Source: Gammaproteobacteria bacterium
GTDB taxonomy: Bacteria > Pseudomonadota > Gammaproteobacteria > Eutrophobiales > Eutrophobiaceae
NCBI GenBank assembly: GCA_965116495.1
Contig: OZ220696.1
Location: 416,001 to 480,000, forward strand
DNA length: 64,000 nucleotides
Direction of reading: 5' to 3'
Both the position numbers and the translations under genes were made by a program. Positions 53,407 through 59,122 of the stretch are shown piece by piece; within the stretch, counting starts at the first letter, position 1, and each line of letters starts with the position of its first letter. The notes beneath the pieces are model-generated. The model saw only the letters and a program-made list of their open reading frames with translations, searched no databases and was not told where the DNA came from.

Positions 53407-54177
53407 TTAAAGTAATCTATTAATACTTTTGCTTAATTGTGCGAATATAAACTTGGGGAAAAACCGGCTCATGAACCAGAGCTGGTTAGCCACGCCAATG
53501 CGAATTTCGTAGTTATCTTTTGCAAAATCTTTCAGGAACGCCGCAACCATTTTTTCTACGGGCATTATCGGAACGCCTTTAATATCTTCTTCATCAAAGC
53601 CTCCTAACATCCCTGTTTCGGTAAGAGGAGGGGCCAGTTCGAAGACCTTGATTGCTGTATTCCTTAATTGCGCTCTCAATGACAATGTATATGAGTGAAT
53701 GGCGGCCTTGGTCGAGCAATATACCGGAGTAATCGGCAGGGGGACAAATGCCAGCCCGGAGGTAACATTGACGATTGCAGGGTTGTTGTTGTGCCGTAAT
53801 AGCGGCAGAAAGGCGTTGTTCATCAACATGGTCCCTTTTAGGTTAATATCGATTTCCTGCGTCAGATATGTTGCGGAAAGGTTGCCGTTACGCAGGTTGA
53901 GCGTTTGCATGATGCCTGCATTATTGATCAGTATATTTAGATCGGGATAGTCTTTTACGGCCTCTTGGTGGAGTTTTTCTACGTCGCCGGGGTTACTGAC
54001 GTCATTCCTGATTATCGTCACACCTCCCAGTTGTTGTTTCGCGTCCTGGAGTTTGTTCTCATCCCGCCCCGTGATAACGACCTTATTGCCCTTTAGTAAA
54101 AACTGCCTGGCCATCTCAAAACCGATACCGCTCGAACCGCCGGTAATCAGGATGGTATTACCGGATAATTTCATCAC
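53407..54177 (-). CDS. Short-chain dehydrogenase/reductase (DltE-like)
   Basis: ITGGSSGIG, LINNAG, TSGLAF, YCSTK. Confidence 0.92.
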   Translation of the reverse strand: MMKLSGNTILITGGSSGIGFEMARQFLLKGNKVVITGRDENKLQDAKQQLGGVTIIRNDVSNPGDVEKLHQEAVKDYPDLNILINNAGIMQTLNLRNGNLSATYLTQEIDINLKGTMLMNNAFLPLLRHNNNPAIVNVTSGLAFVPLPITPVYCSTKAAIHSYTLSLRAQLRNTAIKVFELAPPLTETGMLGGFDEEDIKGVPIMPVEKMVAAFLKDFAKDNYEIRIGVANQLWFMSRFFPKFIFAQLSKSINRLL

Positions 54178-55382
54178 TAACTCCCGGTCCAGGCACGCAG
54201 GGTCCTGACAGCCACTTCATTTTCGATTTCCTCGGGGACATGTTGTGGACCTGCCGGCAATGATTGACTATTTGTCGCGAGATAGGCCAGGGACAGGGAT
54301 TGCAGGGCCAGGCCCAGGTCCATGATTTCGATGGGGTTGCCGTCGCCGGCGCTCAGGTTAATACTGTTACCTCTGCCCAACAGGTAAACGACTTTACCGT
54401 TGCCCAGTTTGAATTTCTGGATATCCGGCATGATTTGGTGTGGTTCGGAGGCCAGTGCGCGCAGGCCGGGCAGGTCGATCTCGTTTTCAAATGCCCCGGC
54501 GTTGCATATTACGGCGCCATCCTTCATTAGCGCCAGGTGACCCTGTTTGAGTGCTCCCGGTCTGCCGGTGACGGTAATGACGATGTCACTGACCGGTAAC
54601 GCCTGCTCCAGTTCAGCCGTATGATAACCCTCCAGGTGCGCTTCCAAGCGCGTCAGGGGGTCGATATCGACTATGGTTACATGCGCCCCCAAGCCGCGCA
54701 AGGCGCGGGCGATACCCTGGCCGCAATAACCATAACCAATGACAGTTGCCCGCTTTCCGCCGATAAGCAGGTTGGAACAGCGCATAATGCCGTCGACAAC
54801 ACTCTGGCCGACGCCATAGCGGTTTTCGACAATGCGTTTTGCCCGGGTATCATTAATTATGAGGGTGGGGAAGATATGTTCATCAATGTCTTCCCGTAAG
54901 CGGAAACCGCCGGTGGTAGTTTCTTCGGTGGCGCCGATCAGCTTCGCCCTGGCGCCGGAAAAGTCCGGATTGGTATGCGCCAACACATGCAATTCTGCGC
55001 CATTATCGGCAATCAGGTCGGGTTCGGTGGATAACACCTTTGCCACGTAATCAAGGTGCTGGCTGGTGGTTTCACTTCTTTTGGCAAATACCCGGACGTT
55101 GTATTCTGCCACCAGCGCGGCAGCCACCTCATCCTGGGTGGTTCCGGGCCAGCCGGTGATTGCGACCTCCGCGCCGCCGCTGGTCAGTGCGTCCATCCAG
55201 ACGCCGGTCTTCGCTTCCACATGCAGGCAGATACCGATACGCATGCCTGTAAAAGGCCTGGTCCTGCTGAAGTCCTCTTTGATCCGGCCCAATACCGGCA
55301 TCCGTTCGCGTACCCAGTTTATTCGATCCAACCCTCGTTGCGCCAGTTCGATATCTTCAATTTCGTATGTAAAATCAGGCAT
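54177..55382 (-). CDS. ahcY: Adenosylhomocysteinase-family protein (short type), divergent active site
   Basis: CLHVEAKT, TQD, EETTTG, NRYG.GQS, GYGYCG.G, IMD. Family-level call; see findings. Confidence 0.85.
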   Translation of the reverse strand: MPDFTYEIEDIELAQRGLDRINWVRERMPVLGRIKEDFSRTRPFTGMRIGICLHVEAKTGVWMDALTSGGAEVAITGWPGTTQDEVAAALVAEYNVRVFAKRSETTSQHLDYVAKVLSTEPDLIADNGAELHVLAHTNPDFSGARAKLIGATEETTTGGFRLREDIDEHIFPTLIINDTRAKRIVENRYGVGQSVVDGIMRCSNLLIGGKRATVIGYGYCGQGIARALRGLGAHVTIVDIDPLTRLEAHLEGYHTAELEQALPVSDIVITVTGRPGALKQGHLALMKDGAVICNAGAFENEIDLPGLRALASEPHQIMPDIQKFKLGNGKVVYLLGRGNSINLSAGDGNPIEIMDLGLALQSLSLAYLATNSQSLPAGPQHVPEEIENEVAVRTLRAWTGS

Positions 55383-57144: not shown

Positions 57145-57633
57145 ATGGTGATGACTATGTCGGCAAAACCCTTGGACGCAGCCAGGATGGAAGCGGTAAT
57201 GCGCGAATATTACGATGGCTGCAACGAGGCCGACCGGGAGAAGATAACGGGTTGTTTCATGCTCGATGCGGTGCACTATTTTCCACCCGGCATGTACGAA
57301 GGACCGTTCCGCGGCGCCGGGAAGATTGCCGAACGCTGGTGCGCAGCCGTGGAAAAGGGCGGTTCTTACTGGACCCTTGATGCCTTGTTGATCGATGCGG
57401 ATAAGGCCGAGGCGGTGATCGAGTGGAGCCACTTCAAAACGGGGCAGGGGACCGTTTTGCGCGGGGCGGAATGGGTGGTTTTTGACAGAGCATCAGGATT
57501 GATGCAGGAAATCCGGGCCTATTATGCGTCGCCGCAAGCGGCAGAACTGAAACGCCTGGAACTGGGTGGCTTCGATTACGAGGGGCGCGGTTACGAGATG
57601 GATTCTCCCAGGGATCGCTCAGCGGGCCAGTAG
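57145..57633 (+). CDS. NTF2/SnoaL-like protein
   Basis: YYDGCNEAD...CF..DAVHYFP, AVIEWS.F, LRGAEW..F, EIRAYYA. Confidence 0.8.
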   Translation: MVMTMSAKPLDAARMEAVMREYYDGCNEADREKITGCFMLDAVHYFPPGMYEGPFRGAGKIAERWCAAVEKGGSYWTLDALLIDADKAEAVIEWSHFKTGQGTVLRGAEWVVFDRASGLMQEIRAYYASPQAAELKRLELGGFDYEGRGYEMDSPRDRSAGQ

Positions 57634-58656
57634 CCCTGCCAGTTGCTGGTGGCTGCCGATAATGCGGTAGGCCCCGGCCCCGCATAAACTGGCTGAGGTG
57701 CCGGCGCCCGTGAGCACTCCTATCGGCACGACACCCGCAGCGTGGCTCGCCTGCATATCGATCATACTGTCGCCCACGTAAATCGTATCGGCCGGATCGG
57801 CATCCATGCGACCCAGGCACTTCAGCATGCCTTCCGGATCGGGCTTGCGTTGTTCGACGTCAGCGCCGGTAACCACTGCGTCGAATAACCCGGCTACGCC
57901 CTGTTCATACAGTAAATCCAGCGATCTTTCTCCGGATCCCGTAACAATGCCGAGCCGGTATCCTGCGCTTTTTAATCCGGATAATGTCTCGGACACGCCG
58001 GGGAATGCGAGCGCATGGGCCTTGAATATATCAGGCCAGAGTTGCATGGCCCTGTCGTTCAGTTTATGGACCATGGCCGGGCGGTTCTCAACGGAGGCGG
58101 GTACTACCTGATGCCAATAGGAGATGCCGTTATTCAGCGTCTCATACATGACCGCTTTGGATACTTCCAGGCCGAATTCATCTCCGGTCGTTTTGGCAAG
58201 CAGGTAAAACGCGCCGACCGTGTCCACCAGCGTCCCGTCCAGGTCGAACAAAATGTTGCTTGTCCTGACAGGCTCGATGACATCCAGGCGCAGGCGGTCG
58301 CCATCGTCCAGGGATAAGTGCCGGCGCAGTGAGACGGAGGTAATAACTTCCACCTGGTCTTCAGGGTAACCGTTGATTTGCGGAAAGATAATCGCCCCGG
58401 TCACACGCCTGTTGATATGCACCGGATAACTCCGCGCATGACAGTTATTCCCGTCAGGGCTGTTTATGTCGATACCGTGCCTGTCCCTCAGCGATTGCCA
58501 GTTCGAGAGGGTCCGCTTGTCATCGATCTTTATGTTGAGGGTGCCGGGCCACGCCTCAATGCCCAGTTTCTCCAGGAATTGCTGTTTTGCGTGTGTAAGT
58601 TCGGTAAAACCCGCGGCTTGTCCTGTCCCGGTTACTACCCGGCCGGATAACTCCAA
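57619..58656 (-). CDS. Fusion of a CTP-dependent (archaeal-type, DUF120) riboflavin kinase and a HAD phosphatase
   Basis: N-terminal G.V.TG.G...F, QF...LG...WPGTLN, VEVI....LR..L.L.DGD; C-terminal LFDLDGTLVDT, GIVT, KP.P, YVGDS..D. Confidence 0.85.
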   Translation of the reverse strand: MELSGRVVTGTGQAAGFTELTHAKQQFLEKLGIEAWPGTLNIKIDDKRTLSNWQSLRDRHGIDINSPDGNNCHARSYPVHINRRVTGAIIFPQINGYPEDQVEVITSVSLRRHLSLDDGDRLRLDVIEPVRTSNILFDLDGTLVDTVGAFYLLAKTTGDEFGLEVSKAVMYETLNNGISYWHQVVPASVENRPAMVHKLNDRAMQLWPDIFKAHALAFPGVSETLSGLKSAGYRLGIVTGSGERSLDLLYEQGVAGLFDAVVTGADVEQRKPDPEGMLKCLGRMDADPADTIYVGDSMIDMQASHAAGVVPIGVLTGAGTSASLCGAGAYRIIGSHQQLAGLLAR

Positions 58657-58657
58657 G

Positions 58658-59122
58658 TCAATACGTCTCCTTTTGTATTTCAGCGGCGCGATGAATCGCG
58701 GCGCGGATGCGCTGGTACGTCCCGCAACGGCAGATATTGCCGGACATGGCCTGGTCGATATCGGAGTCAGATGGCGCAGGATTATCCGTCAGCAGGGCGG
58801 CGGCGGACATCAGTTGTCCCGACTGGCAATAACCGCACTGGGGCACCTGCAATTCCAGCCAGGCCTGCTGTACGGGGTGATAACCGTCTTTGGCCAGGTG
58901 TTCGATAGTGGTAACTTTCTTGCGGCCTATACTGCTCGCGGGGAGCACGCAGGAGCGCATGGGATTGCCGTCAACGTGAACGGTGCAGGCGCCGCACTGG
59001 GCTATTCCGCAACCGAACTTGGTGCCGGTCAGGCCGATCTCGTCCCGCAGCACCCACAACAGCGGCGTGTCCGCTTCGACGTCAACTTCATATTGCCGGT
59101 CATTAATGTTGAGTTTAATCAT
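58658..59122 (-). CDS. (2Fe-2S)-binding small subunit, IorA/CoxS family
   Basis: [42 protein letters not shown]. Confidence 0.95.

Follow-up and report, generated by a model that had tools for sequence, protein, structure and literature searches.

A bacterial fusion of a RibK-like kinase domain and a HAD phosphatase, and its possible place in prFMN metabolism

The fusion gene and its host

The analysed window is a stretch of 64,000 nucleotides from a gammaproteobacterial genome (contig OZ220696.1, positions 416,001 to 480,000 of the forward strand). On its minus strand, a single open reading frame with a TTG start encodes a protein in which a RibK-like domain is followed by a HAD domain:

57619..58656, minus strand: fusion gene, RibK-like (DUF120) kinase domain plus HAD subfamily IA phosphatase, 345 aa
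58279..58638, minus strand: RibK-like cradle-loop barrel (PF01982), residues 7–126
57628..58254, minus strand: HAD phosphatase domain with helical cap, residues 135–343
58658..59122, minus strand: gene for a 2Fe-2S subunit of the xanthine/aldehyde oxidoreductase type, upstream of the fusion
58667..58672, minus strand: Shine-Dalgarno-like AAGGAG, 10 nt upstream of the fusion's TTG, within the final codons of the 2Fe-2S gene

The presence of a RibK-type domain and a complete HAD in one frame, first proposed in a sequence-only reading of this DNA, was borne out by the reading frame, by Pfam and by the predicted fold (the AlphaFold2 model of the full protein has a pLDDT of 93.2 and a pTM of 0.91). 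An artefact or one-off fusion was ruled out by the many homologues of the same layout with invariant catalytic residues. The stop of the 2Fe-2S gene lies 1 nt ahead of the fusion start, and the same gene order is found in genomes G030 and G049; from this arrangement, the fusion gene is probably translationally coupled to the 2Fe-2S gene. The 2Fe-2S subunit gene (58658–59122) has no adjacent large-subunit gene and is coupled to the fusion in three genomes of the same genus. The neighbours of the fusion in the window further comprise a tannase and a SnoaL protein, and neither ubiD nor ubiX is among them. In the host genome (G000), the ubiD gene closest to the fusion is ∼58 kb away and ubiX is ∼157 kb away. 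Two of the 10 host UbiD genes are located at G000:C1 412,155–415,888, immediately left of the window start, and the sole UbiX-sized gene, with no UbiD adjoining, at G000:C1 315,788–316,363. Promoter and terminator scans gave counts at chance level. Elsewhere in the window, an adenosylhomocysteinase-like gene (54177–55382) lies amid hydantoinase, PhoD and TonB-receptor genes; its product scores above one NCBIfam cut-off (419.5 vs 275) and below that of TIGR00936.

The host genome is closed and 99.5% complete, and contains one ribF, one PF01982 gene, 10 UbiD matches and one UbiX-sized flavoprotein gene. Whether ribF occurs alongside the fusion was a point raised by the sequence-only reading, and it does: ribF is the only PF01687 match of the genome, and the fusion protein has no match to this ATP-type flavokinase domain. 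The fusion kinase is therefore an extra kinase, and its role as a RibF replacement was ruled out. RibF was also found in all five other carriers tested. However, profile searches for RibH, RibE and RibB, which detect 14, 11 and 14 of 14 controls, respectively, gave no match in the host genome. In the relative G018, the gene order is glyA-nrdR-ribD-ribE-ribBA-ribH-nusB-thiL (with ribE and ribBA being what we take these genes to be from their motifs), whereas at G000:C1 ∼162,500–166,800 of the host ribD runs directly into nusB, and ribE, ribBA and ribH are missing from the block. The host ribD is kept at full length despite their loss. RibH is also absent from both other genomes of the genus, gave no match in five of the six genomes with a kinase-first fusion, and is present in 49 of 61 genomes of the host family. 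The absence of ribB, ribE and ribH probably makes the host a riboflavin auxotroph. The same observations (no RibB, RibE or RibH; ribD followed by nusB) excluded, for this host, a HAD that acts as the pyrimidine (ARPP) phosphatase of the riboflavin pathway.

The kinase and phosphatase domains

The identity of the N-terminal domain had been staked beforehand on its match to the CTP-dependent kinase profile. PF01982 aligns with residues 7–126 over its full length (profile positions 1–121 of 121) with 93.7 bits (cut-off 25; E 1e-26 in Pfam), and the motifs that had been cited for the kinase, G10-T-G12, P37-G-T-L-N41, E103 and L110-R111, are all in place. This was in agreement with fold searches, in which the predicted model of residues 1–130 matched MJ0056 (2p3m; Z 13.0, rmsd 2.8, 124 aligned residues) and the Thermoplasma acidophilum riboflavin kinase (3cta; Z 12.5), with the next match at Z 6.7; the cradle-loop barrel of MJ0056 is present in the model. 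Residues retained in the domain are G10, G12, F17, T39, L40, N41, P92, Y97, E103, L110 and R111. For RbkR of T. acidophilum, the available part of Rodionova et al. (PMC5397151) gives Gly102, Gly104, Gly106, Thr131, Leu132, Asn133, Leu202 and Arg203 as CTP-site residues, and seven of these eight are kept in the fusion. The eighth, Gly106, corresponds to A14 (this position is Gly in 53% of the fusions), so the GxGEG loop reads GTGQA, and Tyr128 is replaced by Trp36. The same part of the paper lists six FMN contacts, among which Tyr115 and Glu195 are termed absolutely conserved. Four are kept (F17, P92, Y97 and the catalytic Glu, E103), and the other two, Tyr115 and Phe165, are replaced by A23 and N71. 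Neither the altered loop nor the state of the FMN contacts had been noticed in the sequence-only reading.

The change at the Tyr115 position recurs across the bacterial group. Among representatives below 75% identity, position 23 is Ala or Val in 75 of 75 kinase-first fusions and in 94% of 118 stand-alone domains, whereas it is Tyr in all nine archaeal-like sequences with an N-terminal extension (the extended sequence P0223 was excluded from this group). The subfamily also has near-invariant W22 (89%) and C72 (99%), and its catalytic Glu is invariant. Position 71 is Phe or Trp in 53% of the fusions; in the clade of the host, position 22 is His and both ring-stacking aromatics are gone (A23, N71). 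The PxxT riboflavin motif, so named in the accessible portion of Kumar et al. (10.1101/2021.04.15.440061), is lost. Among the matches listed, no NCBIfam equivalog cut-off was reached, including that of ribK_Meth, a lineage-specific model (64.5 vs 168 bits). Judged by its residues, the kinase domain is thus RibK-like in its phosphoryl-transfer machinery, yet it fails one defining residue test, that of Tyr115. Since the flavin pocket is altered (A23, N71, H22), plain riboflavin may not be the substrate, and the remodelled pocket lends some support to the earlier suggestion of a flavin analogue. A degenerate kinase was excluded by the invariant catalytic residues and a dN/dS of 0.15. A kinase-domain tree (230 sequences, ∼120 residues, midpoint root) is too weak to name a donor, and therefore we do not claim transfer from archaea.

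The C-terminal domain is matched by Pfam HAD_2 over residues 135–313 with 114.5 bits. As had been proposed, its HAD motifs are complete (D138-L-D140-G-T, T239, K271 and G295-D-S-x-x-D300), and W181 and W207 are conserved aromatics of the cap. Motifs I–IV, the helical cap and the TIGR01549 score (48.6 vs 23.3) assign it to HAD subfamily IA. In fold searches, the model matched 3d6j with Z 25.9 and the pyrophosphatase 3qu2 with Z 23.5, but many HAD structures match about equally, and these searches did not narrow the substrate. Named HAD equivalogs scored below their cut-offs, namely phosphoglycolate phosphatase (103.8 vs 180), PpaX (75.2 vs 218) and the BT2121-type diphosphatase (73.5 vs 245).

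Domain layouts and the link to ubiD and ubiX

Both domains are conserved and under purifying selection. In 36 of 36 close homologues, G10, G12, T39, N41, E103 and R111 of the kinase and D138, D140, T239, K271, D296 and D300 of the HAD are invariant, and, compared with G049, the kinase has a dN/dS of 0.15 and the HAD one of 0.12 (0.32 and 0.18, from few changes, relative to the very close G030). The fusion has at least 119 relatives of the same layout, as 119 of the best 120 homologues are annotated with both PF01982 and HAD; the few source names given among these 120 are Gammaproteobacteria, Betaproteobacteria/Burkholderiales and Anaerolineae. Two ESM Atlas clusters with the same domain pair, of 53 and 76 members, are 100% and 96% bacterial. 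Within the host lineage, in turn, the PF01982 domain is sparse, being found in six of 61 genomes of the family and eight of 401 genomes of the class (three of them partial or divergent).

A profile search over 1.84 billion representatives gave 1,842 proteins; the top 150 were considered and 45 longer ones scanned. In these 45 the kinase domain either precedes or follows a HAD or has another partner: a PNPOx-type barrel, glyoxalase, MFS, Nudix, histidine phosphatase, LMW phosphatase and the FMN-dependent IDI-2, several of the non-HAD partners being based on one cluster each. Partners such as the PNPOx-type barrel, IDI-2, Nudix and the histidine and LMW phosphatases are flavin or phosphate handlers. 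The domain order described in the sequence-only reading thus holds for the present gene, which is kinase-first, but it is not fixed in the family, as HAD-first fusions exist. In a third layout, a separate HAD gene is followed by an ORF of 96 aa with no Pfam family and then by the kinase gene. In a HAD tree with a midpoint root, built from every third kinase-first representative, six further named ones and every second control, 35 of 36 partner HADs from the three layouts form one clade with a FastTree support of 0.996 and none of the 38 controls inside, and therefore the partnership looks older than any one fusion.

Small and divergent relatives were also seen. The conserved ORF of ∼96 aa between HAD and kinase recurs in ∼16 loci (among them L155:7668–7958, L144:7668–7958 and L169:7683–7958) without a Pfam match. 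In two different families, a conserved small ORF follows the HAD-first fusion (L102:9628–10074 and L103:9632–10279, the latter copy without a Pfam match). A much more divergent PF01982-like domain (E ∼1e-7) is present in G109 and G431 (L092:1285–2892, L095:259–1830 and L093:1327–1935). Two of these copies form the N-terminal part of a long protein which, by eye, resembles a glycosyltransferase; this domain seems to form a separate subfamily.

At the level of genomes, the kinase domain occurs together with UbiD. All six carriers in the host family have UbiD (10, 6, 2, 1, 10 and 12 copies), compared with 17 of 55 non-carriers. In four further carriers of the class, UbiD gave 6, 20, 5 and 5 matches at E 1e-3 (6, 17, 5 and 5 at 1e-20), and G460, an alphaproteobacterial carrier outside the class (6.2 Mb, the genome of L003), has 31. 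Among 120 genomes of the class searched at E 1e-20, 51 have no UbiD, 66 have one, three have two and none has more. G016 (six UbiD, 98% complete) and G037 (seven UbiD, 95% complete) are without the kinase domain. Genes of the xanthine-oxidase family are also abundant in the family carriers (13, 14, 7, 0, 4 and 10), so the UbiD signal may partly reflect a catabolic lifestyle. Because kin are not independent, operon links weigh more than genome counts.

Such links recur. In the phenol cluster of Azoarcus KH32C, the genes are arranged as ppc genes-ubiD-ubiX-DUF120-NUDIX, and ubiX overlaps the start of the DUF120 gene; a similar cluster is present in G236. In L117 the UbiD stop overlaps the fusion start, in L115 UbiD is directly upstream of the fusion, and in L108, L109 and L111 the fusion lies ahead of a UbiD/pps block. 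UbiX is carried by L107 and L113, and several glyoxalase-kinase fusions are followed by UbiX. In L123, L130, L135, L139 and L140, a kinase with an N-terminal extension, which is a glyoxalase in the relative P0122, is directly followed by ubiX; three of these loci also have ubiD, and in some a luciferase-like monooxygenase precedes the kinase. Overall, UbiD is present in seven of 10 complete fusion loci (two of four clusters at 75% identity). For all loci of the bacterial type, many of them short, ubiD or ubiX is nearby in 12 of 28 non-redundant clusters, and in seven of the 13 clusters represented by a locus of 8 kb or more. In control loci, neither gene was found in any of 79 generic HAD loci totalling 1.07 Mb; these are the 79 with a generic HAD among 80 loci returned by a contig scan with full-length alignment, the remaining one being a kinase locus. 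Both genes are also absent from L144, L155 and L169, which are 16-kb loci with the HAD/small ORF/kinase layout. By comparison, ribB lies beside 10 of 11 tyrosine-type, archaeal-like loci and beside none of the other 79, and in the loci examined rib genes were never found beside the bacterial subfamily. It is apparent that the kinases split cleanly into a rib-linked (tyrosine-type) and a ubi-linked group.

Possible roles and comparison with known systems

The reading that we prefer, and put forward tentatively, is that the fusion may be an accessory enzyme of prFMN (UbiX/UbiD) metabolism, in which the kinase makes FMN for UbiX and the HAD dephosphorylates a flavin phosphate. In its favour are the ubiD/ubiX linkage across the family, the additional RibF, the grouping of the partner HADs from three layouts in one clade, the purifying selection on both domains and the fusion partners that handle flavins or phosphates. 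The kinase would phosphorylate scavenged or imported riboflavin to FMN, probably with CTP, and this FMN would feed UbiX apart from the RibF route. The HAD would probably remove the phosphate of a flavin phosphate, either surplus free FMN or a spent flavin, and thereby permit recycling. A possible reason for pairing the opposite activities lies with UbiD, which also binds free FMN, so that FMN might compete there with prFMN. According to the available part of PMC13040415, EcUbiD binds FMN ∼10-fold tighter than 18 µM; as free FMN binds at low micromolar levels, clearing it could matter. In a yeast screen, overexpressed riboflavin kinase FMN1 ranked high, which the authors, in the accessible text, read as riboflavin supply limiting the AroY.C step (10.1101/2023.08.30.555557). 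Plants pair kinase and FMN hydrolase activities in AtFMN/FHy, as stated in the portion of PMC9678776 at hand. Against the prFMN reading, neither ubiD nor ubiX adjoins the fusion gene in the host or lies in L144, L155 and L169, and the structural neighbours of the HAD are generic. Coupling a kinase to an FMN phosphatase in the cytosol would also expose an auxotroph to futile cycling.

The futile cycle would be avoided if one protein provided both UbiX substrates, with the kinase making FMN and the HAD cleaving DMAPP to DMAP; this is the main rival reading, which we regard as rather unlikely. In E. coli, the DMAP for prFMN is made by Nudix enzymes, as given in the available part of PMC12359138. 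All of the ubiD/ubiX linkage fits such a role, as do the type 1 IPP isomerase that accompanies ubiX and the kinase in cluster L113, the fusion of IDI-2 to the kinase in P0159, a Nudix gene after the stand-alone kinase in L096 and L186, a fused Nudix in P0256 and the place of the pyrophosphatase 3qu2 (Z 23.5) among the near structural neighbours of the HAD. However, L109 has both the fusion and a Nudix gene, so the two are not simple alternatives. Moreover, the Nudix proteins of these clusters carry a zinc-ribbon-like segment at the N-terminus and look like dinucleotide diphosphatases; their substrate may thus be FAD rather than DMAPP. As for the HAD, most enzymes of this type hydrolyse monoesters, and one that did so would destroy DMAP. 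In addition, some UbiX enzymes need DMAPP, and in the part of PMC6541611 available the preference for DMAP or DMAPP is not readable from one residue; a reading of this preference from the host UbiX was dropped because one residue is not decisive. The zinc-ribbon-like segment was seen in the Nudix proteins of two phenol clusters and in one Nudix protein of the host (L186:10437–10982, L109:11908–12432 and L188:7262–7879), and the closest structure for that of L186 is 3cng.

The altered flavin pocket could instead point to salvage, repair or cross-feeding of prFMN, in which the HAD would convert prFMN species to prenyl-riboflavin and a widened pocket would let the kinase phosphorylate it again. 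We consider this improbable. In its boldest form, which we hold equally doubtful, the bacterial DUF120 subfamily would be a missing salvage branch for prenylated flavins, in which a kinase with a pocket widened to take prenyl-riboflavin works beside a phosphatase of its own; UbiD-rich bacteria unable to make riboflavin could then recycle prFMN, repair it or pass it on in a dephosphorylated, vitamin-like state. The loss of Tyr115 (Ala or Val in 75 of 75) alongside new W22 and C72 and an invariant catalytic Glu would suit it, as would the missing RibH match in five of six genomes with a kinase-first fusion; the MFS fusion P0181 and adjoining genes judged transporter-like from their sequence in L098 and L106 hint at transport. 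However, W22 may simply replace the tyrosine stack, 'prenylated riboflavin' is a loose name for the cofactor in the one paper found with the term, and prFMN forms are unstable in solution according to a source available in part.

A switch for FMN homeostasis in general, which evolved convergently with plant AtFMN/FHy and would serve flavoenzyme-rich genomes without a special tie to UbiD, carries a similarly low probability. It has the plant precedent (PMC9678776, in the part available), and the carriers are rich in molybdo-flavoenzymes too, with xanthine-oxidase-family genes adjoining locally in G000, G039, G049, L107 and L111; some kinase/HAD operons are also without ubiD or ubiX. However, adjacency to ubiX or ubiD with overlapping codons recurs across lineages, neither gene occurs in the 79 control loci, and G015, which carries the fusion, gave no match for the xanthine-oxidase family but has one UbiD at a distance of 13 kb. 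The kinase/phosphatase switch of the sequence-only reading is supported in part, but it missed the ubiD/ubiX link, and a generic FMN switch leaves unexplained the ubiD/ubiX adjacency, the UbiD-rich genomes and the absence from the surroundings of rib genes. A kinase for a non-flavin alcohol, for example prenol to DMAP, together with a HAD that works on the same pool of prenyl phosphates, is very unlikely: the host clade has lost both ring-stacking aromatics (A23, N71) and phosphorylation of prenol is a known DMAP route in a partly available source, but four of six FMN contacts are kept, position 71 is Phe or Trp in 53% of the fusions, and the domain also fuses to flavin-binding PNPOx barrels.

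Both domains are already known, and plants offer a functional analogy. The fusion resembles archaeal RibK (MJ0056, PDB 2P3M/2VBV; PF01982; EC 2.7.1.161) in its full-length profile match, fold, GTLN and LR motifs and catalytic Glu. It differs in being bacterial, joined to a HAD, coexistent with RibF and linked to ubiD/ubiX rather than to rib genes; its Tyr115 equivalent is Ala, GxGEG is GTGQA, PxxT is lost and the ribK_Meth score is below the cut-off. With RbkR (T. acidophilum, PDB 3CTA/5TRD; PMC5397151, available part), it shares a homologous kinase domain (E 1.8e-10, Z 12.5), but it has a HAD instead of a winged-helix domain: the kinase begins at residue 2, and PRK14165 is matched at profile positions 91–217 only. 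The available part of the same paper states that RibK orthologues are absent from Bacteria, whereas members of a remodelled RibK subfamily occur in several groups of bacteria and go along with ubiD/ubiX.

The analogy to plant AtFMN/FHy drawn in the sequence-only reading was right in that a kinase and a phosphatase share one chain. In the plant enzyme, the kinase belongs to the ATP-type family and the HAD is N-terminal, whereas the bacterial family has a PF01982 kinase and is found in either domain order. The two may also be alike in catalysing opposite reactions on one flavin (AtFMN/FHy as cited in the available part of PMC9678776). The known prFMN accessory proteins (LpdD, PhdC and the Nudix/ThiM DMAP suppliers) are encoded with ubiD/ubiX and likely support cofactor supply, as proposed here for the fusion, but their folds differ. 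No kinase/HAD accessory for prFMN was found in the literature searched, and the search, thin in subscription journals, returned no description of the fusion or of a bacterial RibK-like protein in prFMN metabolism.

Supply and turnover of prFMN limit the use of UbiD (de)carboxylases in aromatic breakdown and CO2 fixation. The fusion is a small, soluble candidate for which E103 (kinase) and D138 (HAD) offer single-residue controls, and it has a homologue in Azoarcus KH32C. This DUF120 protein, WP_015451796.1 of the pps/ppc phenol cluster, belongs to the same kinase subfamily (38% identity) and shares F-T-x-x-x-W-V, C-x-A and Y-P with the fusion; it differs in standing alone, between ubiX and a Nudix gene, and is annotated just as a DUF120 protein. 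If the prFMN reading is true, it would also give a function to this so far unexplained member of the anaerobic phenol cluster.
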